Positions 1,362-45,652 of a stretch of DNA of 64,000 bases are shown here, piece by piece (within the stretch, counting starts at the first letter, position 1; each line of letters starts with the position of its first letter). Both the position numbers and the translations under genes were made by a program. Source of the stretch: a virus; IMG/VR virus record IMGVR_UViG_3300008448_000018, positions 1 through 64,000 of that record, one strand, 5' to 3'. The notes under the pieces are model-generated. The model saw only the letters and a list, made by a program, of their open reading frames with translations. It was not told the DNA's origin and did no database searches.

Positions 1362-1567
1362 TGAAAAAAATCTATCACTCACTACAATTCGTCACCGAAC
1401 TAGACGAAACTCACCCAGTAGCACAACGCCTGCTAACACTTTCAGAAATTGAACAAGTGCAAATGCTTGAAGGTATGCTAAAAGAATTACTTGCACCTAT
1501 GATTCAACCAACACTTGATGAACTCAACGAGGGCAATTCTTATGCAACGCTAAAGGTGGCAAAATAA
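1361..1567 (+). CDS. hypothetical protein
   Basis: TAATG coupling; MKKIYHSLQF... Confidence 0.7.
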   Translation: MKKIYHSLQFVTELDETHPVAQRLLTLSEIEQVQMLEGMLKELLAPMIQPTLDELNEGNSYATLKVAK

Positions 1568-1738
1568 ATGATGACACGCAAAGACTATGTAGCCGTTGCA
1601 GAAATTCTTTCATCTTATAAAGATTTAATAGGTGATGAATTTTTATTTGAAGATTTGGTAGAAGATTTTTCTTCATTCTTTGCAGAGGATAATCCAAATT
1701 TTAAATTTGATAAATTCAGAGAGGCGTGCATGAAATGA
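1568..1738 (+). CDS. small phage protein (MTRKDY...DNPxF...F.EAC type)
   Basis: Hand-translated MMTRKDYVAVAEIL...EDNPNFKFDKFREACMK. Confidence 0.7.
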   Translation: MMTRKDYVAVAEILSSYKDLIGDEFLFEDLVEDFSSFFAEDNPNFKFDKFREACMK

Positions 1739-1887
1739 TTCTAGATACTGGAACACTAATCGGAATAACAATTGCACTTGCTGGATCTCTTTTTGTAATG
1801 GGTATGTTTTGGAAACAAAATATTGCACAACAAAAAGAAATTCGCAGATTGCAAATTGCGTTGAGAAGTGAACGACTAAAAAAATAA
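1735..1887 (+). CDS. small membrane protein with basic tail
   Basis: MILDTGTLIGITIALAGSLFVMGMFW...; ATGA overlap. Confidence 0.65.
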   Translation: MILDTGTLIGITIALAGSLFVMGMFWKQNIAQQKEIRRLQIALRSERLKK

Positions 1888-1892
1888 ATAAA

Positions 1893-1921
1893 AAATCCTG
1901 AGCAAGATTTAAAACTGCTCA
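1893..1921 (+). ncRNA. H-type pseudoknot, family copy 1
   Basis: AAATC-C-TGAGCA-A-GATTT-AAAAC-TGCTCA. Confidence 0.75.
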
Positions 1922-1928
1922 AAAATTT

Positions 1929-2032
1929 CCGGCGTGTCGTCCACAGGTTATCCACAGACCTTTACGTGTGATATTAAACACACCCCGAAATGACCTTATG
2001 AACTGGAAAATGTCAGTCCAGTCTGATAGGCT
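1929..2032 (+). promoter_or_regulatory. regulatory block 2: GGCGTGTC, DnaA boxes 1937-1945 and 1948-1956, CRP-like box 1967-1982, TGTCAG(2011)-N10-TAGGCT(2027)
   Basis: Motifs read directly. Confidence 0.75.
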
Positions 2033-2059
2033 TGATTTATCAAGACGAAAGGAAAACTA

Positions 2060-2254
2060 ATGGGAAACTTATTTGATAAAATAGGAACTTGCTACACTTG
2101 CTATGATGAGGGCGTTATCTTTACTGATATGGATAGCGATGGATTTATAAATGATTTCTGCGCTGATTGTGAAAAAGGGCAGGGATTTGCTAATGAGTAT
2201 GCCGTATGGTATGCTGAAAATGAAATGAACGAATATGCTAAGGAGAACGCATAA
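2060..2254 (+). CDS. small CxxC..CxxC protein
   Basis: GAAAGGA RBS; CYTC, CADC. Confidence 0.75.
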   Translation: MGNLFDKIGTCYTCYDEGVIFTDMDSDGFINDFCADCEKGQGFANEYAVWYAENEMNEYAKENA

Positions 2255-2463
2255 TGGAATATAACTACTCACTTACTACTTCATATGATGGAGAACTTGT
2301 AAATACCCTGCGTGTTAGCGATATGCTAGAGGCAGTAAACGCTTGGACTAAATGTGTAGACTTTGGCGACGCTAAAGAATACGCAACCTATAACTTGTCA
2401 GACCCTACTGGCAAAATGTATACTAAGACCTTCTACCGCAACGGAAATGTGAGTGTAAAATAA
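2254..2463 (+). CDS. hypothetical protein
   Basis: AGGAG RBS, TAATG coupling. Confidence 0.75.
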   Translation: MEYNYSLTTSYDGELVNTLRVSDMLEAVNAWTKCVDFGDAKEYATYNLSDPTGKMYTKTFYRNGNVSVK

Positions 2464-2464
2464 T

Positions 2465-2749
2465 ATGGGTTCAGTAACCGCACTAGGAATTCAAGATACA
2501 GTATTAGACTTGGAGACTCAGATTCTCTATCACTTGAAGGGTAATCACTATCCTCCAGTACCCGCAGAAATGGTACAACCTTGCATTGAGGCTATTGACG
2601 CTTACTATGATGAGGACTATGACCGAATGATTGATATGCCAAAAGTTGGTGACTTTCAGATTTTATATCGTGGCTCAACGCAAGCACCTGCAAGGGCTAT
2701 CGTAGACCAGCACCACTTATCATTCTGGCTACCTGAAGAGGAATACTAA
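2465..2749 (+). CDS. hypothetical phage protein (HLxGNHYPPVP motif)
   Basis: 94 aa ORF in operon context. Confidence 0.75.
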   Translation: MGSVTALGIQDTVLDLETQILYHLKGNHYPPVPAEMVQPCIEAIDAYYDEDYDRMIDMPKVGDFQILYRGSTQAPARAIVDQHHLSFWLPEEEY

Positions 2750-2750
2750 A

Positions 2751-2993
2751 ATGACTGCTACAATAACAAATATGAAATTTGTGTATGCAGACTTACTTAC
2801 ACCTAGCCAGTTAATGGAAGGTGACTTGATCAATATTGATAATGATATTGTGGAAGTTATTTCAGTAGTTGATGACGCTACTGGAGATAACTATACAATT
2901 ACTCATAAGAATGAATATGATGAAGTAGAAGAAACTCTTTGCACCTATGAAGATATGTTTAAGTTGTATGTCTTTATAGATGATGATGAATAA
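2751..2993 (+). CDS. hypothetical acidic protein, SH3/KOW-like
   Basis: LMEGDLINIDNDIVEVISV pattern. Confidence 0.7.
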   Translation: MTATITNMKFVYADLLTPSQLMEGDLINIDNDIVEVISVVDDATGDNYTITHKNEYDEVEETLCTYEDMFKLYVFIDDDE

Positions 2994-3094
2994 AAATTCA
3001 TAACACTGCATAAAAACCCCGGCGTGTCCGTTTTGTCCAGAACCTCCTGATTATGGGGAGTTGATATTTTTCCCAATTTCTGCTAAGATTAAGT

Positions 3095-3235
3095 ATGAAA
3101 AAAACACCAGAGGAATTACGCAGGCTTATGGAATTACGCCGTAGCAATGCTGCCTCATCGGTCCCTAATAAAAAGAAATACAACCGCAAGAAATGTCAGT
3201 CCCTAATGCTAGAATTAAAGAAAGAAAGTGAGTAA
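3095..3235 (+). CDS. small basic leaderless protein (46 aa)
   Basis: TTGATA(3061)-N17-TAAGAT(3084)-N5-ATG; MKKTPEELRRLMELRRSNAASSVPNKKKYNRKK... Confidence 0.6.
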   Translation: MKKTPEELRRLMELRRSNAASSVPNKKKYNRKKCQSLMLELKKESE

Positions 3236-3241
3236 TCCACC

Positions 3242-3964
3242 ATGTCAAAATTACTTAGAAGCAAAGATAGGAAAGTAGCAAATGCCGTCACCCCAAATGG
3301 AAAACAAGCAAGTATCGCAAATACATTCGGATTACCTGCAGGAAAAAACTATTCATGTCCTGGCGCTACGAGTGTCTGCGAGAGTGTTTGCTATGCAGGC
3401 AAATTGGAAAAGGTATTCCCAACAGTAAAGAAAAACTTATTGCATAACTGGGAATTACTACGTAATGCTGATCGTGTTGAGATGTACACACTAATTTCAG
3501 AAATGATTGCAGAGTTTAAAACAGATTGTGTTAGACGCAATGCCCCTATGCTATTTCGCATTCACTGGGATGGCGATTTCTTTAACGATGAGTACGCACA
3601 AGCATGGCGTTCAGTAATCGAAGAGCAACCTGATATTCAATTCTGGGTATACACTAGAGTTAAGTCTGCAGCGCTTATCCTAAAAGACATTCCTAATCTA
3701 TCTTTATATTATTCTACAGATAGCGAGAATAAGAGTGTAGGCGTTGACCTAAAGAGTAATCATGGTATTAGACTTGCATACCTTGCCAAAAATTTTGCTA
3801 TCGGTCAAGGGGATATGAAAGAGTTATTCAATAAGCCTGGTGCTAAGTGCCCTGAGAATAATAAGTCTATTCCACTTATCTCACAGAAAGGCTCGGCTTG
3901 CGTTTCTTGCGGATTGTGTGTATACTCGAAGGCAGACATAGTTTTTTCCGCAACTAAAAAGTGA
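3242..3964 (+). CDS. GP88-like Fe-S/radical-SAM-like phage protein
   Basis: SCPGATSVCESVCYA, FRIHWDGDF, YTR, C-terminal CxxCxxC; preceded by TGTCAG(3194)-N10-TAGAAT. Confidence 0.75.
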   Translation: MSKLLRSKDRKVANAVTPNGKQASIANTFGLPAGKNYSCPGATSVCESVCYAGKLEKVFPTVKKNLLHNWELLRNADRVEMYTLISEMIAEFKTDCVRRNAPMLFRIHWDGDFFNDEYAQAWRSVIEEQPDIQFWVYTRVKSAALILKDIPNLSLYYSTDSENKSVGVDLKSNHGIRLAYLAKNFAIGQGDMKELFNKPGAKCPENNKSIPLISQKGSACVSCGLCVYSKADIVFSATKK

Positions 3965-4035
3965 GATACCAACAATGGATAACAGTATAATCTTATATAT
4001 TCTGCTATGGCTATTTCTAATGTTTCTTACCCAAT

Positions 4036-4148
4036 AGTCCGTAATGTCCGATATGTCCAGATGTGATTTATATCACAATCAAAAATGTATCAAATAGTGA
4101 GATTTTTACCCTTCCGACTTGCATTTTGTCAGTAGGTAGTAGTAAAAT
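4036..4148 (+). promoter_or_regulatory. regulatory block: three 9-nt repeats 4036-4062, perfect CRP-like box 4062-4077, TTGCAT(4119), TGTCAG(4127)-N10-TAAAAT(4143)
   Basis: Motifs read directly. Confidence 0.8.
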
Positions 4149-4178
4149 AATAATATCAACCTAACGAAAGGAAATACA

Positions 4179-4343
4179 ATGTCAGTAGCAACCGCAACTT
4201 ACAAAGTAGGAGATACCTACACAACACAGAAGTCCAAAGTCACAGGAGTAATCAAGGAGATTATTCCACAGGCTAACGGAAATGTCCGTGTTGCGCTAGA
4301 TGTAGAGGGAAAGACCCGATACACAACTTGGACAGCCAAGTAA
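4179..4343 (+). CDS. small SH3-like beta protein (54 aa), paralog A
   Basis: GAAAGGA RBS; MSVATATYKVGDTYTTQKSKVTGVIKEII...RVALDVEGKTRYTTWTAK. Confidence 0.75.
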   Translation: MSVATATYKVGDTYTTQKSKVTGVIKEIIPQANGNVRVALDVEGKTRYTTWTAK

Positions 4344-4352
4344 AATAAAATA

Positions 4353-4422
4353 ACGAAACAGGGGCAGTTTAGGAGAGTATCTAGCCCAATGTCGTAAGTA
4401 AGAACTCTCCCCCCTTCGGGGG
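4353..4422 (+). ncRNA. larger pseudoknot followed by a cUUCGg hairpin
   Basis: GGGC 4362/GCCC 4384; loop GGAGAGT 4372 pairs with ACTCTCC 4404; then CCCC-TTCG-GGGG. Confidence 0.6.
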
Positions 4423-4477
4423 AAATGTCAGACCCACCCCCTACAATAGAAACTAACCACCAAAGAAAAGGAAACCA

Positions 4478-4903
4478 ATGTCAAGAGGAAAAGCAATCTC
4501 AGTAAAAATCGCAACACCAAAGGTAATCAAGGCACTAGAACAGGCACTAAATAAACTAGAACTTGATTGGACTTCACAAGAAGCCAATGAAGCAAAGTAT
4601 GAGAAGGCAAGAGAGAAGTGGCGTAAAGAAGTTCAAGAATACGCTATTGCTAACATCAAGAAGGCAACCAACTTCCGCACTTCATATCGTTCATACAACA
4701 ACACGCTAAACATTGACTACGATATTATCGTAGCAAAAGAAAGCGATATGCCAGTAGAACCAAATCGTGATTTCGTAGTGCTACACACTCACGAATATCA
4801 AAGTCAGAAAGAGGAAATTGCAAATGCAATTCGTATCCTAAAGATGACAGATGAGGAAGTTGTAAATACTTCTACATATAATGCGGTAGCACGCTACCTA
4901 TAA
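4478..4903 (+). CDS. hypothetical protein (141 aa)
   Basis: AAGGA RBS; TGTCAG(4426)-N10-TACAAT promoter. Confidence 0.8.
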   Translation: MSRGKAISVKIATPKVIKALEQALNKLELDWTSQEANEAKYEKAREKWRKEVQEYAIANIKKATNFRTSYRSYNNTLNIDYDIIVAKESDMPVEPNRDFVVLHTHEYQSQKEEIANAIRILKMTDEEVVNTSTYNAVARYL

Positions 4904-4918
4904 TTCCTACTAAGGAAA

Positions 4919-4948
4919 AGTCCTGAGTATGACTACTAAAACTGCTCA
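4919..4948 (+). ncRNA. H-type pseudoknot, family copy 2
   Basis: AGTC-C-TGAGTA-T-GACT-ACTAAAAC-TGCTCA (U.G wobble in stem 2). Confidence 0.75.
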
Positions 4949-4986
4949 CCAACTCTAAACACCACAACAGAAAGGCAAGACCCAAA

Positions 4987-5157
4987 ATGACACTAGGCGG
5001 ATACACTTACCAAATTGGTGATTTATTCACAACAAGCAAAACAGGAATTACAGGTCGTATTAGCAACTTTACACCTATCAATTCTAAACTTACTAGAGTT
5101 TCATTACAGTTAGCAAATGGCGCACACCGATTTGCTATGGTAAAAACATCTAAGTAA
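4987..5157 (+). CDS. small SH3-like beta protein (56 aa), paralog B
   Basis: GAAAGG RBS; MTLGGYTYQIGDLFTTSKTGITGRISNF...RVSLQLANG. Confidence 0.75.
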   Translation: MTLGGYTYQIGDLFTTSKTGITGRISNFTPINSKLTRVSLQLANGAHRFAMVKTSK

Positions 5158-5164
5158 AAAGAAT

Positions 5165-5263
5165 TCGCCAGGCTGATTAGGGCGATAATAGAAATACTAT
5201 AGAGCCACCTTATTGGGCAGGTGCAAGAACCCATACATCCTGAGCATGATGGAAAAAGGCTCA
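5165..5263 (+). ncRNA. three tandem H-type pseudoknots; the third is family copy 3
   Basis: TCGCC/GGCGA + GGCT/AGCC; ACCT/AGGT + TGGG/CCCA; CATC/GATG + TGAGC/GCTCA. Confidence 0.65.
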
Positions 5264-5272
5264 AAAATTTTG

Positions 5273-5357
5273 CCGGGCTCGTGTGATCAACATCACATCT
5301 CATTATATGAGATAGTTACGATTCCCATTTGTACTTGTCAGTCCTCATATGTATACT
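5273..5357 (+). promoter_or_regulatory. regulatory block: CCGG, perfect CRP-like box 5282-5297, TCTCA-N5-TGAGA, TTGTAC, TGTCAG(5336)-N10-TATACT(5352)
   Basis: Motifs read directly. Confidence 0.8.
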
Positions 5358-5386
5358 TATATTAAACCACAAAGAAGGAGACCCCT

Positions 5387-5650
5387 ATGATAGCAACAGC
5401 GATAGCAATCCAAGATGCAACTGCCTCAGCCGTTCACGATAATATGATTATGGATATGGCTGGACATTTATACCACGCAAGAAACGAAATGACAGACGAA
5501 GAGTTTGTTCAGTTCTTATTTAAATACTCAGCCAGTTTGTCAGCCCTAACTGCTACATTGGTTACATCAGTTTGTTTGACAGAAAGTCAGATGAACGATA
5601 TGGTAGATACCATTAAAGAATTCGACCAACTAGAACAAGAAATGGAATAA
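5387..5650 (+). CDS. hypothetical protein
   Basis: AAGGAG RBS; 87 aa. Confidence 0.8.
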   Translation: MIATAIAIQDATASAVHDNMIMDMAGHLYHARNEMTDEEFVQFLFKYSASLSALTATLVTSVCLTESQMNDMVDTIKEFDQLEQEME

Positions 5651-5655
5651 CCCCT

Positions 5656-6135
5656 ATGTCAACTAATATACTTGAAGCGGTAACAGAAGATAAGTTAACC
5701 GTCGCATACAACCCGCACTTACTGGTTACTTATAAGGCAATTCCAGATACATATGCTGCACCTGAAGTGCCTACATTCTTAACAAGCAAGGTTACCGATA
5801 TTGAATGGGACCTACACGTATCACGCAATAATACTAAGAGACTTGATAAGTTAGAGAATCTTATCAATGGACTAGATGAGCAAGTTATTGAATGGACTAA
5901 TCCTAACTATGAAAAGGATGAGGTTCTTGCTGGAATCTGTGAATACTTTGGTATTAATCCTACCAAGGAAATTGAAGTACAAGGAACTGTAACATTTACA
6001 GGAACAGTGCGTGTACCAATTGCAGAAGCAGAAGACTTTGACTTAAGTAATGTTTCAGTCGATGTTGATTTAAATTCATATGACTATGATGCAGACTTTT
6101 GTGTTGACGAAGTATCTCTTGAGGAGCACTACTAA
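5656..6135 (+). CDS. hypothetical acidic protein
   Basis: 159 aa ORF in operon. Confidence 0.8.
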   Translation: MSTNILEAVTEDKLTVAYNPHLLVTYKAIPDTYAAPEVPTFLTSKVTDIEWDLHVSRNNTKRLDKLENLINGLDEQVIEWTNPNYEKDEVLAGICEYFGINPTKEIEVQGTVTFTGTVRVPIAEAEDFDLSNVSVDVDLNSYDYDADFCVDEVSLEEHY

Positions 6136-6159
6136 GTTTCATAGGGGGCTATGAAAAAG

Positions 6160-6190
6160 GGACCTGAGCAGTGTCCATGTAAACGGCTCA
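6160..6190 (+). ncRNA. H-type pseudoknot, family copy 4
   Basis: GGAC-C-TGAGC-AGT-GTCC-ATGTAAACG-GCTCA. Confidence 0.75.
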
Positions 6191-6198
6191 CCAATATT

Positions 6199-6311
6199 CC
6201 CACTTATTAGAGTGGTAGTGTGTTGAGTAAGTGGGTGCTTATCTCGTAAGAATAAGAATACCTGGAGTTCATCAGAAGGATGATCTATAAGCAACAGGGC
6301 ACACTACCACT
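6199..6311 (+). ncRNA. large pseudoknotted RNA (10-bp and 12-14-bp stems, hairpins in loop 3)
   Basis: CCCACTTATT/AGTAAGTGGG; AGTGGTAGTGTG/CACACTACCACT. Confidence 0.7.
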
Positions 6312-6319
6312 TGTAAATT

Positions 6320-6441
6320 CCGGCACGCCCAGCCTGGTTTGTCAAGTTACGATTATGTGAGATTCCCCACATTCCCAAAATGTCCGATTTACCCCTATTT
6401 AACTATCCTGATTTGCATTTGTCGGTGGCTAGGTGTATGAT
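6320..6441 (+). promoter_or_regulatory. regulatory block: CCGG, CRP-like box 6356-6371, TGTCCGATT, TTGCAT(6413), TGTCGG(6420)-N10-TATGAT(6436)
   Basis: Motifs read directly. Confidence 0.8.
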
Positions 6442-6471
6442 TAGATTAACAACAAAAGAAAGAAGGAAATC

Positions 6472-7494
6472 GTGGCTCACGACTTAGAAACACAAAATGG
6501 TAAAACCTCATTCGCCTCATTCAGAGAACCTGCTTGGCACGGATTGGGTACTGTATTTACCGAAGAAAAAACAACCGCAGAAATGCTAGAGGCTGCAAAT
6601 CTTAATGGGTGGAATGTTCGCCTTGAAGATATGCAAACACCCGCACACCTAACAAGCGACAAGGCTTACCAATATGTCTTGCGTACTAATCCTACTGATA
6701 ACACCCAGACTGATATTCTTGGTGTTGTTGGTGAGCGTTATCACGTATTGCAGAATGAAGATTTATTCTCATTCGGTGATAATATCCTAGACGGCGGAGG
6801 TCGTTGGGAAACTGCTGGCTCAATCAAGGGTGGGCGTGTTGTATTCGGTGCATTAGCACTAGAGCGTGAAACAATCCTAGACCCTAGCGGTGTTGCAGAT
6901 AAGGTAAAGACTTATTTACTTATCAACACATCACACGATGGCTCAATCGCTATTCAAGCAAGCATAACACCTGTTCGTGTTGTGTGCGCTAATACTCTTA
7001 ACCTTGCTCTTGGTGGCGTAGGTCGCAAGAAGAACAAGGGTATCAAGCAATCTTTCAAGATTCGCCACACACAAACTGCAAATGGTAAAGTGCAGATTGC
7101 TCGTGAAACTCTTGGTCTTGCTAATGCTTATATGGACGAATTTGATGTTATGGCTAAGGCTATGATTGAAAAAGAAGTTTCTGCTAAGGATTTCAATGAC
7201 ATCATTCTTGCTGCATATGCTAAGCCAGAAAAAGATTCTAAGGGTTCAATGAAGAAGTGGGAAAATAAAGTTGATGTTATCAACGATATTTACACTGGTG
7301 AATTCAATGGAATGATTGCTGGTAATGCGTGGGGTGCGTTCAATGCACTTACTGAGCGTCTTGACTGGTATCGTTCTGCTCGTGGTGGTTCTAACGAATC
7401 TATCCTTGCAAGCGCAAGCGGATTTGACCCTGCTATCAACGCAGAAAAAAATCGTCTGCTAAAAGTTGTGCAAAATGTTATGCAATTAGCATAA
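6472..7494 (+). CDS. DUF932 / TIGR03299-type phage/plasmid protein
   Basis: MAH..REPAWHGLG, YHVLQNEDLF, ETAGSIKGG, NTSHDGS, TPVRVVCANT, AWGAFNALTE. Confidence 0.9.
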   Translation: MAHDLETQNGKTSFASFREPAWHGLGTVFTEEKTTAEMLEAANLNGWNVRLEDMQTPAHLTSDKAYQYVLRTNPTDNTQTDILGVVGERYHVLQNEDLFSFGDNILDGGGRWETAGSIKGGRVVFGALALERETILDPSGVADKVKTYLLINTSHDGSIAIQASITPVRVVCANTLNLALGGVGRKKNKGIKQSFKIRHTQTANGKVQIARETLGLANAYMDEFDVMAKAMIEKEVSAKDFNDIILAAYAKPEKDSKGSMKKWENKVDVINDIYTGEFNGMIAGNAWGAFNALTERLDWYRSARGGSNESILASASGFDPAINAEKNRLLKVVQNVMQLA

Positions 7495-7508
7495 GCAAAC
7501 GAAAGAAA

Positions 7509-7536
7509 ATTCCTGAGCAAGAATCAAAACTGCTCA
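7509..7536 (+). ncRNA. H-type pseudoknot, family copy 5
   Basis: ATTC-C-TGAGCA-A-GAAT-CAAAAC-TGCTCA. Confidence 0.75.
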
Positions 7537-7539
7537 CAC

Positions 7540-7612
7540 GCTCCGTTAGATTAGCGGTTAAATCATCACACTGTCACTGTGAAGATCACGAGTTCAAATC
7601 TCGTACGGGGCG
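7540..7612 (+). tRNA. tRNA-Asp(GUC)
   Basis: GCTCCGT/ACGGGGC acceptor, TCACA-CTGTCAC-TGTGA anticodon arm, ACGAG-TTCAAAT-CTCGT T arm. Confidence 0.9.
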
Positions 7613-7730
7613 CAATGCAAAAAGCGGTGCCGGATTTTTGTTTATTTTATTAGCATTGCATTACGGAGACTTGATTTATTTCCCATTTTCGGGTAAAATT
7701 AATATATACCTACTAACCAAAGGAAACACC

Positions 7731-8156
7731 ATGAGTGAAAGATCAAAAGGATATATTGGTCAAATAGTTGACGGTAAGAAGTTAGCAACAATAGCAAATG
7801 ATATCTATCGTCTACAGTATAGCAATGACTTTAGTGAATGTACAGTAGATAATTTGTTATTTGTTACCCTTGAAGAAAAGAATGTATTTGGCGACAATAA
7901 GTATGCCTTGGTTTGCTCAGAAGGAGTAGGCTGGGAGCAGGACACTTATGGATGTCTAGAAGTACCAACTAACATTGGTCAAATGGGTCTATGGAATGGT
8001 AGAGTGTTTATCTCTGTAGATACTGTTAAAGAATGTCTAACAGAACAAACAGAGGATATCGCAGACTACATCCGTGTCTTTGGTGATAGATTAGATAGAA
8101 ACTGTTCCCTATGGCAATCTAAGATGTCAGTGCCTAGCGATATGATATTATCATGA
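7731..8156 (+). CDS. hypothetical protein
   Basis: AAAGGA RBS before MSERSKG. Confidence 0.75.
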   Translation: MSERSKGYIGQIVDGKKLATIANDIYRLQYSNDFSECTVDNLLFVTLEEKNVFGDNKYALVCSEGVGWEQDTYGCLEVPTNIGQMGLWNGRVFISVDTVKECLTEQTEDIADYIRVFGDRLDRNCSLWQSKMSVPSDMILS

Positions 8157-26846: not shown

Positions 26847-27638
26847 TTACTTACCTCTTAGTGCCTTTAGTGTTGCTTGATCGACTACACCTGTTACTGG
26901 CAAAGAAGATTTCTTTTGAAAAGCCTTAACTGCTTTTTCAGTTCCTGGACCAAAATCACCATCGGCATTGACTCCAAGAAGTTCTTGAACCTTTTTTACT
27001 GTTTCTCCTTTTGAGCCCACCTTAAATGGTTTAAACTCTTTCTTTTCTGCAGGAGCAGAAGGCTTTACAGCAACTGAACCTGATGGAATTATTGATTCAC
27101 CCTTTGAAAGTAATGCAAGGTTTTCTTCTCCAGCGTATACTGGACGACCCCAACCAACAACTGCGTTAAGGATACCTTTCTTATTCTTTACATAAGCACG
27201 AGTCTTTTCTACACACATTCCGCCATTGCGTTGGTCACCCTTTGCAGTTCCAGATGTGTTTCCTTCAATAACTTGAATTGTTCCATCACCATTGTTCTTA
27301 ATGCAAAGACCAACATGTGAAATACGATTTACACCATCATCTGGGAAATCAAAATAAATCCAGTCTCCTGGTGTTGGATCATCATTACGAGCATCTGCCC
27401 AACGATTATTCTTCTTAAACCAATCTGCTGCTGCAACAGTTGATGCAGTCTTTGGATACTTCTTTGGATCTAGACCAGATGTAAATGCACACCAAGAGAC
27501 AAATGACTGGCACCATGGAGCAAAGTTTGCACCAGACCATTTACCATACTTTGTCTCGTTATCTTTTGGACCTTCAATAGTTCCAATTTCTGCTTTAGCA
27601 ACCTCAATAATTGCTGCCAAACTACCTTTTGCTGCCAT
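26847..27638 (-). CDS. endolysin: CHAP domain plus peptidoglycan-binding domain
   Basis: PWCQSFVSW, SHVG, IEGNT; ADGDFGPGTEKAVKAFQ. Confidence 0.9.
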   Translation of the reverse strand: MAAKGSLAAIIEVAKAEIGTIEGPKDNETKYGKWSGANFAPWCQSFVSWCAFTSGLDPKKYPKTASTVAAADWFKKNNRWADARNDDPTPGDWIYFDFPDDGVNRISHVGLCIKNNGDGTIQVIEGNTSGTAKGDQRNGGMCVEKTRAYVKNKKGILNAVVGWGRPVYAGEENLALLSKGESIIPSGSVAVKPSAPAEKKEFKPFKVGSKGETVKKVQELLGVNADGDFGPGTEKAVKAFQKKSSLPVTGVVDQATLKALRGK

Positions 27639-27711
27639 GTTTCCTCCTAATTAAAGTGGACAGTTTATTACAGGACATGTCCAGGTCCTCTAGTCTATTA
27701 TATCCTATTGG

Positions 27712-28140
27712 TTACTTTTTTGCAACTTTGATGTCAATTGTTTTAGGCTTCTTGTCTTCTGGAACAATACGATCTACATTAATGTGTAGCATACCATCCT
27801 TCATTTCAGCCCCAGTTACTTCCATGTATTCTCCAAGAGCAAATGATCGTACAAATTTACGAGCAGCAATTCCCTTGTGAACTACTTCAGCATCTGTTAC
27901 TTCAACAATCTCACCCTTGATAATTAATGTTCCATTATCTACAGATACATTAATATCTTCCTTTGAGAATCCAGCAATGGCTAGTGAGACTCTATATGTA
28001 TCTTCATCTAGTTTTAGGATGTCATAAGGTGGATATGTTTGTGAGTTTGTTTTATATGCGCTGTTTAGGCGATTCAACTCTCTGTTGAAGCCAATAAAAA
28101 AAGGATCATTGAATAGATCCATAGCGAGTTTTGTTACCAT
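27712..28140 (-). CDS. small heat shock protein Hsp20
   Basis: YPPYDI, LAIAGF, HKGIAARKF.RSF, DGML.I. Confidence 0.92.
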   Translation of the reverse strand: MVTKLAMDLFNDPFFIGFNRELNRLNSAYKTNSQTYPPYDILKLDEDTYRVSLAIAGFSKEDINVSVDNGTLIIKGEIVEVTDAEVVHKGIAARKFVRSFALGEYMEVTGAEMKDGMLHINVDRIVPEDKKPKTIDIKVAKK

Positions 28141-44995: not shown

Positions 44996-45652
44996 CTACC
45001 AGTCGATGTTGGTAGCAGAAGAAGTTGATGGACCGTCAAAGCCCAAATAGAATGCCTCTTGCTCAGCATATGGAATTTTCTTCAATGCTAGTTCTAGAGG
45101 ATATGGTTTTACTTCTGCCCAGTCAAAAGGTTCCTTGTCTGGAGCACCTGGAATAATTGTGTAAGATGTTTCAGTTCCCTGACCATTACGCTTTACTTTC
45201 CAGAGTACGTTTGAGATGCTTCCTGTTTCAAGAGCATACTCACGAATTGTGTTAAATGCTGACTGCTTGCTAACACCCATTGACCAGATTGCAACATAAG
45301 GTGCTTCAATGCCGTCATCTACCAAAACGTTGCAATAGAAACGAAGACGTGCTCTCCAGCCAGCCTTTGGATCCTTGCGGTGCATCTCTTCTGCCCAGTC
45401 ACGACCTTCTGATTCCATTGTGTCTACAGCCTTACGCTTATAGTCCTTTGGATTTGTGTGTTCTTTAACAACTAGTGCAAGACCACGTTCTGCATTATAG
45501 TTTGCAGAGTCTTCATCTAGTTCTTCAATGAAACGAATTTTTACTGATTGACCGTCGGCAAGTTTAAGCCACTTTACCTTTGGTGAGTTTTCATCATACT
45601 TTGGCTTGTCGAGCAGGGCATTAATATTTTTGAGTCCCTTTACTACGCTCAT
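44996..45652 (-). CDS. single-stranded DNA-binding protein (gp32-like)
   Basis: Position in replication module; KVKRNGQGTETSY; acidic/aromatic C-terminus. Confidence 0.7.
   Translation of the reverse strand: MSVVKGLKNINALLDKPKYDENSPKVKWLKLADGQSVKIRFIEELDEDSANYNAERGLALVVKEHTNPKDYKRKAVDTMESEGRDWAEEMHRKDPKAGWRARLRFYCNVLVDDGIEAPYVAIWSMGVSKQSAFNTIREYALETGSISNVLWKVKRNGQGTETSYTIIPGAPDKEPFDWAEVKPYPLELALKKIPYAEQEAFYLGFDGPSTSSATNIDW

Follow-up and report, generated by a model that had tools for sequence, protein, structure and literature searches.

A widespread 30-nt RNA pseudoknot near gene ends in phages and prokaryotes, with a possible role as a 3'-end cap

The stretch of viral DNA analysed here (the window: 64,000 nt, positions 1 to 64,000 of IMG/VR record IMGVR_UViG_3300008448_000018) carries a dispersed family of RNA elements of about 30 nt, which covariation shows to be H-type pseudoknots. 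The motif is not specific to this actinophage clade but is a very widespread module, and its context points to a 3'-UTR element. In our preferred reading, to which we give a probability of roughly 45%, the pseudoknot would act as a compact 3'-end cap and terminator surrogate, marking and protecting the 3' ends of mRNAs.

Scanning the window for the pattern CTGAGY-N10-22-GCTCA yielded exactly five matches, all on the + strand, at positions 1898, 4923, 5240, 6164 and 7513, against 0.76 expected from shuffled sequences; the whole 101.5-kb genome held no further match to this pattern. A covariance model scored the five copies at 33.8-52.5 bits, and the next best match in the window at 7.8 bits. 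Both results bear out the five-member + strand family that a sequence-only reading of this DNA had proposed.

Copy 1 (1893-1921, + strand; 52.5 bits) is composed of the 5' strand of stem 1 (S1a, 1893-1897), loop 1 (L1, C1898), the 5' strand of stem 2 (S2a, 1899-1903), loop 2 (L2, 1904-1905), the 3' strand of stem 1 (S1b, 1906-1910), loop 3 (L3, 1911-1916) and the 3' strand of stem 2 (S2b, 1917-1921). Its stem 1, AAATC/GATTT, begins 5 nt past the TAA that ends ORF 1726-1887; DnaA-box-like and palindromic boxes are found 3' of the copy. Copy 2 (4919-4948, +; 45.2 bits; stem 1 AGTC/GACT; L3 ACTAAAACT) starts 15 nt past the TAA of ORF 4478-4903 and is separated by 38 nt, counted from S2b, from the next ATG (4987). 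Its S2a reads TGAGT, giving a U.G wobble with G4944.

For copy 3 (5236-5263, +; 40.7 bits; stem 1 CATC/GATG; L3 GAAAAAG) the closest ORF stop upstream (5155-5157) is 78 nt off; a promoter-like site occurs downstream at 5335-5363. Copy 4 (6160-6190, +; 33.8 bits; stem 1 GGAC/GTCC; L3 ATGTAAACG), in which L2 is the trinucleotide AGT, starts 24 nt past the TAA of ORF 5656-6135; a stable element of about 105 nt was noted downstream, at 6210-6312. Copy 5 (7509-7536, +; 47 bits; stem 1 ATTC/GAAT) starts 14 nt past the TAA of a DUF932 gene (6472-7494) and ends 3 nt ahead of a tRNA-Asp (7540-7613, +) identified by ARAGORN and Rfam; in the corresponding spacer of related loci the pseudoknot was kept in 67/67 cases, with stem 2 rewired in two. 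The observation that each copy lies just after a TAA was correct for four copies (5-24 nt) but not for copy 3. Four of the five sit at gene ends, just before the next promoter region or tRNA.

Reading of all five sequences confirmed that stem 1 is different in each copy and paired in every one, and that stem 2 is invariant in the window apart from the C-to-U change of copy 2. Covariation of each stem was tested in samples picked independently of that stem. Stem 1 covaried heavily in 130 unique relatives: its pair 6-19 occurred as AU (49), UA (28), GC (26), CG (22) and GU (5), and was never unpaired. Stem 2, invariant in the window, covaried elsewhere, in 148 sequences selected without regard to stem-2 pairing, and was fully rewired at an orthologous site. 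Covariation of both stems substantiates the H-type fold and the RNA-level selection that had been proposed.

The outermost pair of stem 2 as originally drawn (U10-A37) was not conserved, so that the stem reduces to a 4-bp core, GAGY/GCUC; in many copies an A15-U32 pair is added. The stems vary, and the invariant positions were found in the loops: a single nucleotide of L1, the nucleotide with which L2 begins and the adenines of L3. Loop 3 was A-rich across the copies, as noted at the outset, and contained an invariant AAA in the relatives, which may make triplex contacts with stem 1 in the manner of compact triplex-type knots. Nested folding recovered stem 2 alone (-3.8 to -6.9 kcal/mol); therefore, thermodynamic prediction by itself would have missed the knot. 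No pairing excess indicative of a third helix between the flanks was detected (at most +0.06).

Scanning the window with Rfam 15 at gathering score returned tRNAs only, and at E values up to 10 nothing in positions 1500-8000 overlapped the five copies. Our literature search found no description of it; it may figure as an unnamed candidate in the supplement of the 2015 RAGATH paper. Whatever its function, the motif has a strong claim to an Rfam family of its own.

A near-identity search with 7.5 kb against cultured phages gave no match. Short-query BLAST against cultured phages identified one true copy, in cyanophage S-RIM4; the matches to Staphylococcus Silviavirus were false (18.5 bits or less). 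Exact-pattern scans were run on IMG/VR and GTDB, and their counts, which refer to the matches listed, are lower bounds. Among these matches, real copies were present in many bacterial phyla, in a cyanophage and in Methanobrevibacter, and ordinary bacterial operons in many phyla also carried the knot; the description as a local family of five was accordingly too narrow. Up to 7 copies occurred per locus, with a smallest inter-copy gap of 28 nt and a median of 1151 nt. The pseudoknots were counted on one strand in 244 cases versus 9 on the other, and no locus had copies on both.

Among the matches listed, the upstream stop codon typically ended 9-11 nt before loop 1, with a sharp lower bound. 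In 54% of 434 phage contexts the distance was 6-20 nt, with a peak at 9-10 nt and almost no values under 9 nt, and the listed GTDB copies peaked likewise. Measured to stem 1, the spacing peaked at 4-5 nt. The distances had a tail beyond 100 nt.

A spacing of 4-5 nt is also the one at which frameshift and read-through stimulators are placed. In luteoviruses (BWYV, ScYLV, PEMV-1) the -1 frameshift pseudoknots are compact H-type structures that span about 28-32 nt. Their stem 1 has 4-5 bp, and their stem 2 is short and rich in G-C; loop 1 is very short and opens with C, junction nucleotides are present, and the A-rich loop 3 finishes in AAAC or AAAA. The fold described here has the same overall layout, with putative triplex contacts. 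A signal acting on the ribosome at the stop codon, through recoding, pausing or a post-termination barrier, is nevertheless highly improbable: in 265 contexts, the sequence past the stop stayed open for a median of 7 codons in frame 0, 6 in frame -1 and 4 in frame +1, and in-frame slippery heptamers numbered only 3; when the spacing is 9, an in-frame UGA is provided by the knot, and stop-to-knot distances extend beyond 100 nt. Unlike the luteovirus knots, the present one has no slippery site or -1 ORF and is located past stop codons, its carriers being DNA phages and bacteria. A programmed -1 frameshift or read-through stimulator, which would call for a slippery heptamer or leaky stop 5-9 nt upstream and a long ORF in the new frame, was rejected on the heptamer count and the short open frames.

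The region downstream of the knot was distinctive. When pairs within 30 nt were considered, the order knot-then-tRNA was found in 94 instances, with the tRNA at +2 to +13 and six tRNA types represented, and the reverse order once. Hammerhead ribozymes adjoin the knot in loci L245, L210, L087 and L090 (Rfam hammerheads being present in L245 and L210), and in three unrelated loci their cleavage sites were located at +5, +5, +7 and +12. Altogether, a cleavage site lies between the knot and the downstream gene in more than 90 instances. Hammerheads are known to flank genes in prophages, and it has been suggested that they divide long phage transcripts into mRNAs of gene length (PMC3088659).

Runs of at least four T starting at +1 to +6 followed 17-25% of copies, whichever of the three data sets was considered, compared with about 2% at control positions. 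G was depleted at +1 and +2, which we attribute to avoidance of an extended stem 2. About half of the copies had only the ribosome-binding site of the next gene downstream, with no 3' end predicted there; in bacteria the next start codon was often 11-44 nt away.

These contexts agree best with one part of what the sequence-only reading had listed, an exonuclease roadblock or processing signal: stop codons lie upstream, and tRNAs, hammerheads and U-runs downstream. Antitermination, also on that list, does not fit: the knot is found where genes end, and the U-run that directly follows it lacks a separate hairpin.

In the preferred reading, the knot would be a self-contained H-type unit in the 3' UTR of the upstream gene. 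The stem 1 hairpin (4-6 bp, free in sequence and closed by C-G) would form first, and its loop would then pair with GCUC about 12 nt downstream as stem 2, the invariant C crossing stem 2 and the invariant AAA running along stem 1. The knot would sit just beyond the reach of a ribosome halted at the stop codon and therefore remain folded on translated mRNA, where it would mark the 3' boundary of the message.

In copies followed by a U-run, the closure of stem 2 probably serves as the terminator stem. In those followed by a tRNA or a hammerhead, the cut made by RNase P or by the ribozyme itself would place the knot 2-12 nt from a new 3' end, where it could block 3'-to-5' exonucleases and stabilise the upstream mRNA. 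For copy 5, 5' maturation of tRNA-Asp by RNase P would give the upstream RNA a new 3' end that is 3 nt from the knot. Both exonuclease resistance and termination are what we infer from the fold, the positions and the neighbours of the knot.

A comparable arrangement exists in the eukaryotic nuclear lncRNAs MALAT1 and MEN-beta, in which a compact triplex-type structure lies directly upstream of the tRNA-like mascRNA, so that the 3' end generated by RNase P is a protected one. The logic is that of copy 5 and its tRNA-Asp, with no homology implied, since the MALAT1 structure is a U.A-U triple helix on a genomically encoded A-tract and not an H-type knot. The 3' stabilising stem-loops of bacterial and phage mRNAs (intrinsic terminator hairpins, RNase III-processed sites between T7 early genes, REP elements) are likewise dispersed between genes, at gene ends of early polycistronic transcripts, where they define and protect 3' ends; however, they are simple hairpins of clade-specific sequence, whereas the knot is one conserved pseudoknot module across phyla.

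Two observations speak against the cap: about half of the copies have no predicted 3' end, and stop distances tail off beyond 100 nt. In addition, a 3' cap alone leaves unexplained why the loop residues are so strongly conserved across phyla, because any stable hairpin could block exonucleases.

Intrinsic termination, which relies on a stable stem ending 0-2 nt ahead of a U-tract, could be the primary role, with the pseudoknot replacing the G+C-rich hairpin and the copies that lack U-runs being decayed or leaky. The excess of U-runs over controls is in line with this, as is the scarcity of separate canonical terminators nearby (7/505 versus 6/505 controls, no enrichment). The early region of the window has promoters and no convincing canonical + strand terminators, and an archaeal copy is followed by UUUUUUAUU. 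This explanation is quite unlikely all the same: about 80% of copies have no U-run, and read-through would be required both where a tRNA, a hammerhead or DUF2800 RNA begins 2-13 nt past the knot and for operon copies that precede a start codon by 11-40 nt. We know of no demonstration of termination by a pseudoknot.

The knot might instead be a processing module of its own: a very small self-cleaving ribozyme, or the target of a universal RNase (RNase P, Z or E). It would then punctuate polycistronic transcripts in the manner of tRNAs and hammerheads. According to Weinberg et al., occurrence in many phyla, a pseudoknot, invariant residues and no gene association are traits of sophisticated RNA functions (PMC5737381). 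Under these 2017 criteria, the knot, with its multiple phyla, pseudoknot topology and several near-invariant nucleotides, is of a kind that usually proves biochemically demanding; it is present in phages as well, and it occurs in the hammerhead-rich neighbourhoods that yielded new ribozymes.

The hairpin-loop/3'-strand knot with its AAA linker resembles the P1-pseudoknot scaffold of the pistol ribozyme, in which a 3' strand reaches back over a conserved-AAA linker to pair with the loop of a hairpin and which shares the hammerhead-rich phage neighbourhoods. The pistol 3' knot strand, however, lies beyond P2, and the knot has no P2, P3, G-U cleavage site or Rfam match. We regard a processing module as unlikely, given that there would be no need for it at sites with a tRNA or a hammerhead cut 2-12 nt further on, that the element is only about 30 nt long with no third helix formed with the flanks, and that no Rfam ribozyme matched even at E values up to 10. 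A tRNA-like CCA tail is not general either: among the matches listed, CCA at +1 to +3 was found in 53/434 phage contexts (12%), mostly orthologous sites, and in 1/84 from GTDB, on which ground an acceptor-arm mimic, whose 3' strand would lead into a discriminator base and CCA within a stacked helix of about 12 bp, was rejected.

A ligand or protein site, riboswitch- or operator-like, could tune the downstream gene or mRNA fate according to host state. The architecture and conservation resemble small pseudoknot aptamers, above all the preQ1-I riboswitch (RF00522), an H-type knot of about 34 nt with variable P1, conserved P2 and an A-rich 3' tail; the covariation of both stems and the invariant AAA match this fold, a resemblance of fold only. 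The short distance to bacterial start codons is also suggestive, for example in three Geobacteraceae loci where the knot precedes P-type ATPase genes. Such a role is very unlikely in view of the remaining data. When 64 ORFs downstream of the knot and 73 upstream of it were scanned with Pfam, they proved heterogeneous, with no shared function; there are up to 7 copies per locus, a cleavage site often separates knot and gene, the knot never overlaps the ribosome-binding site, and no Rfam riboswitch matched. Unlike preQ1-I, which belongs in the 5' leader of genes for queuosine or preQ1 synthesis or transport, the knot lies 3' of ORFs in many copies per genome and gave no covariance-model match at E up to 10; queuosine genes were absent from the scanned ORFs, and a preQ1-I riboswitch was rejected.

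The proposal of a decoy RNA against host defence, mimicking an antitoxin like ToxI, or of a DNA-level protein-binding palindrome, is largely refuted. ToxI and the pseudo-ToxI of phage phiTE are phage-portable pseudoknotted units of about 36 nt, close in size to the knot, which occurs in phage early regions, and TGAGC...GCTCA is palindromic. However, ToxI units form head-to-tail arrays beside a toxin gene of the ToxN/AbiQ type, whereas the knots are dispersed, one per 3' UTR, and occur in ordinary cellular operons as well. A type III antitoxin RNA was rejected: tandem repeats were absent (gaps of at least 28 nt) and no toxin family was found among the neighbours. As for a DNA site, G.U pairs were found among the covarying positions, a single strand is used, and pseudoknot topology would be senseless in duplex DNA.

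More broadly, the knot may represent a new, widespread class of functional RNA with a biochemical activity of its own, a portable gene-end module that phages would pass on horizontally and that is either a universal exonuclease-proof 3' cap or the smallest natural self-cleaving or factor-recruiting pseudoknot; we hold this possibility to be doubtful though worth considering. A universal cap would work in bacteria, archaea and their viruses, and would be for prokaryotes what the MALAT1 triple helix with its RNase P site is for eukaryotes.

If the preferred reading as a 3'-end cap is correct, the 3' ends of mRNAs from phages and mobile elements would be marked, in much of the prokaryotic world, by one 30-nt module that is easily recognised in sequence, and transcription units of uncultured phages could be annotated better. 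The module would also help to explain the hammerheads and tRNAs between phage genes, these cutting and the knot protecting, and would offer synthetic biology a very compact, portable RNA-stability or terminator part.

The count of five overlooked a divergent sixth copy on the - strand (27657-27688), spotted by an architecture scan and then read as GGAC-C-UGGAC-AU-GUCC-UGUAAUAAACU-GUCCA; this generic pseudoknot scan was very noisy and served for no other purpose. Stem 2 is GGAC/GUCC in place of GAGC/GCUC. Confidence in this copy is lower, because the covariance model did not detect it and its two stems have identical letters. It lies 23 nt past the TAA of ORF 28140-27712 and 18 nt ahead of the ATG at 27638. 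Two relatives with a nucleotide match to its gene, L109 and L148, both carry canonical copies, in the same spacer or elsewhere.

The window covers the first 64 kb of an IMG/VR phage genome of 101.5 kb that carries direct terminal repeats. Its gene content is actinophage-like, with GP88-family and DUF932 proteins whose closest named relatives belong to Streptomyces phages (approximately 52% identity). The pattern CTGAGY-N10-22-GCTCA yielded five matches, all on the + strand (at 1898, 4923, 5240, 6164 and 7513), against a chance expectation of 0.76 from shuffles, so the five-copy family noticed in the sequence-only reading is real (1893-1921, 4919-4948, 5236-5263, 6160-6190 and 7509-7536). No match was found outside these five sites in the entire 101.5-kb genome. 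Each copy is laid out as S1a-C-UGAGY-A(W)-S1b-A-rich loop-GCUCA, S1a and S1b being the two sides of stem 1; this order is that of an H-type pseudoknot (here, the knot). Nested folding recovers stem 2 only, at -3.8 to -6.9 kcal/mol. Four of the five copies lie at a gene end, shortly ahead of the next promoter block or tRNA, where a phage 'moron' cassette has its terminator.

A sixth, divergent copy is located on the - strand (27657-27688), downstream of a 142-aa ORF, and has GGAC/GUCC as stem 2. This gene is matched at the nucleotide level by two relatives (L109 and L148), both of which carry canonical copies somewhere in the locus. By eye, the 142-aa ORF (27712-28140, - strand) resembles a small heat-shock protein of the Hsp20/alpha-crystallin type.

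Stem 1 was analyzed in 80 related phage loci gathered via the DUF932 protein (91-97% amino-acid identity). The strict pattern occurred 244 times on the gene strand vs 9 times on the opposite one and gave 130 unique variants, which were selected by the stem-2 pattern alone. In these variants stem 1 covaries fully: pair 6-19 was AU in 49, UA in 28, GC in 26, CG in 22 and GU in 5, with none unpaired; pair 7-18 was UA in 85, AU in 36 and CG in 4; and the closing pair was C-G in 124 of 130. The covariation score was reached by none of 500 shuffles, and pairing fell from 91.5% to approximately 30% when the 3' partners were shifted by 1-3 columns.

For stem 2, a non-circular sample was selected by stem-1 pairing and invariant loop residues, with up to two mismatches allowed anywhere in stem 2; this stem-2-free selection yielded 148 unique 35-mers, aligned without gaps. 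The four inner pairs covary (127 GC, 11 AU, 8 GU and 1 UA; 143 AU, 3 GC and 2 GU; 143 GC, 2 AU and 2 UA; 110 CG, 31 UG and 6 UA), with at most one unpaired sequence at each; of the 30 double mutants, approximately 25 were compensatory within one pair. The outermost pair, U10-N37, is not kept (20/148 unpaired). Covariation in homologs, of stem 1 (n = 130) as of inner stem 2 (n = 148), confirms the pseudoknot that had been proposed from the five copies. The knot was present in 67/67 orthologous spacers between the DUF932 gene and tRNA-Asp. In the two that the pattern had missed, stem 2 is rewired to UAGAC/GUCUA and UAGGC/GCCUG, which indicates that it is the stem-2 helix that matters and not its letters. 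Truly invariant in the 148-sequence alignment are the C-G pair closing stem 1, C9 in loop 1, U10, A15 and the AAA of loop 3. The 5' and 3' flanks do not pair with each other. G is nearly absent (2%) from the first and second nucleotides after stem 2, which we take to mean that lengthening stem 2 onto C9 and C8 is avoided.

Scanning IMG/VR with an exact 25-30-nt pattern gave at least 119 loci. Among the matches listed, most loci had no nucleotide similarity to the window, G+C ranged from 30 to 58%, and at least three consecutive stem-1 pairs were present in 163 of 164 instances. A scan of GTDB, one genome per species (596 Gb), was expected to return approximately 170 chance matches; stem 1 was paired in 84 of the 121 instances listed. 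The paired instances listed came from Saccharibacteria, Bacteroidota, Firmicutes, all Proteobacteria classes, Cyanobacteria, Actinobacteria, Omnitrophota and others, and also from Methanobrevibacter. Cyanophage S-RIM4 provides a cultured example (44.7 bits), located at 45609-45644 with an annotated CDS on either side. The sequence-only reading had made novelty depend on Rfam: Rfam 15 gave no match to the knot, and no published description of the motif was found in the literature searched. The knot is a widespread pseudoknot family and appears not to have been described before.

The position of upstream stop codons was determined for 434 unique phage contexts (ORFs of at least 45 codons). A stop lies 6-20 nt ahead of loop 1 in 54% of them; the distance peaks at 9-10 nt, with almost none below 9, and an identical peak was obtained for the GTDB copies. 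The knot belongs to the upstream gene. Applying the established geometry of the ribosome footprint, we infer that the 4-5-nt gap between stop and stem 1 is the nearest position that spares the knot from unwinding by a ribosome whose A site is occupied by the stop codon. A signal directed at the ribosome is very doubtful, since extended frames and slippery sites are absent.

The neighbouring genes have no common function: they include anti-restriction, scaffold and recombination genes and methylases, as well as Geobacteraceae P-type ATPases, Cpn10 and cytochrome c assembly genes. This lack of any gene association makes a ligand or protein sensor improbable. Knots are dispersed (median gap 1151 nt, up to 7 copies per locus) and were never seen on both strands of one locus. 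The functional guess of the sequence-only reading was right in part; the ToxI-like decoy that it included, or a DNA site, is most improbable, being contradicted by copy arrangement, neighbours, G.U pairs and strand bias. In three Geobacteraceae MAG loci (L229, L238 and L239), a cellular, non-phage setting, the knot lies 31-32 nt ahead of genes for heavy-metal P-type ATPases and has after it a short hairpin that covaries (CCG/CGG, CGG/CCG and CCA/UGG).

The knot is often followed by an element that makes an RNA 3' end. There are 94 instances of a tRNA (Asp, Arg, Leu, Gly, Gln or Ser) beginning 2-13 nt past the knot, and a single one of the reverse order. In three unrelated loci a hammerhead lies downstream, with the cleavage site 5, 5, 7 or 12 nt past stem 2; Rfam hammerheads were confirmed in L210 and in L245, a Polynucleobacter MAG locus with a tandem knot-hammerhead-60-aa ORF-knot-hammerhead unit (7290-7620, - strand). 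The RNA excised from this unit would have a 5'-OH and a 2',3'-cyclic phosphate, hence its circularisation is conceivable. The first knot of the unit has a compensatory stem 2, UGAGU/ACUCA. The distribution of the knot and the presence of hammerheads nearby make it attractive to see the knot itself as a ribozyme or an RNase target; such an activity would be redundant beside a hammerhead or tRNA, and we consider it rather unlikely.

Runs of at least four T starting at +1 to +6 after stem 2 follow 25% of clade, 17% of IMG/VR and 20% of GTDB copies listed, vs approximately 2% at control positions; separate hairpin terminators downstream were not enriched (7/505 vs 6/505 controls). A pure terminator is unlikely, as approximately 80% of copies lack a U-run and some must be read through.

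The simplest model, to which we give a probability of about 0.45, is that the knot may be a 3'-terminal structure, or cap, of the upstream message. It would account for the stop-codon spacing, the one-sided tRNA association, the sites of hammerhead cleavage and the U-runs. Such a cap would survive translation; with a U-tract downstream the knot would terminate transcription, and a cut by RNase P or a ribozyme would leave it a few nt from the RNA end. Hammerheads flanking prophage genes have been proposed to cut long transcripts into gene-length mRNAs (Perreault et al., PMC3088659); the knot could supply a protected 3' end after such cutting. Protection alone does not explain the conservation of loop residues across phyla. 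In its logic the arrangement is most like the MALAT1 triple helix with mascRNA; in shape, luteovirus frameshift knots come nearest. The knot is well worth experiments, and the cap is a candidate function.

In Clostridia and Bacteroidales loci the DUF2800 RNA (RF02960) adjoins the knot. In L107 it scores 159.9 bits (285-445) and starts at the nucleotide right after the knot; it also follows the knot in L218 (693-841 and 1089-1179), L214, L215, L232, L282 and L284. A 5' pseudoknot module may be missing from the Rfam RF02960 model. The DUF2800 RNA repeats ahead of successive small ORFs.

Other elements were observed near knots in the window. A stable multi-branch RNA-like element of approximately 105 nt (6210-6312, + strand) starts 19 nt past the fourth copy; it has a 14-bp closing stem (GUGGUAGUGUG.../...CACACUACCAC), an MFE of -37.5 kcal/mol (z -3.46) and no Rfam match. 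Between knot and next promoter, DnaA-box-like or related boxes occur at 1935-1958, 3019-3045 and 6320-6345, including a perfect TTATCCACA (1949-1957) with a weaker neighbour GTCGTCCACA (1936-1945), and a CCGGCGTGTC(C) box (3019-3029) with variants elsewhere; boxes of this group are present in most related loci, immediately past many of the knots. CRP/GlxR-type palindromes, TGTGAT-N4-6-ATCACA, lie in early intergenic regions (1966-1983 and 5282-5297) and are common in relatives too. A conserved 43-nt box, TTCGCCAGGCUGAUUAGGGCGAUAAUAGAAAUACUAUAGAGCC (5164-5206, + strand), whose fold alone is not significant (z -0.26), is found again in several related loci, where its distance from the knots varies. 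Finally, the gene at 4179-4343 is followed, where other genes have a knot, by a box, CGAAACAGGGGCAGUUUAGGAGAG..., and then a hairpin, CUCCCCCCUUCGGGGGA (4354-4424, + strand); in two other loci, L112 and L047, the CGAAACAGGGGCAGUUUAGGAGAG box is placed after a knot.
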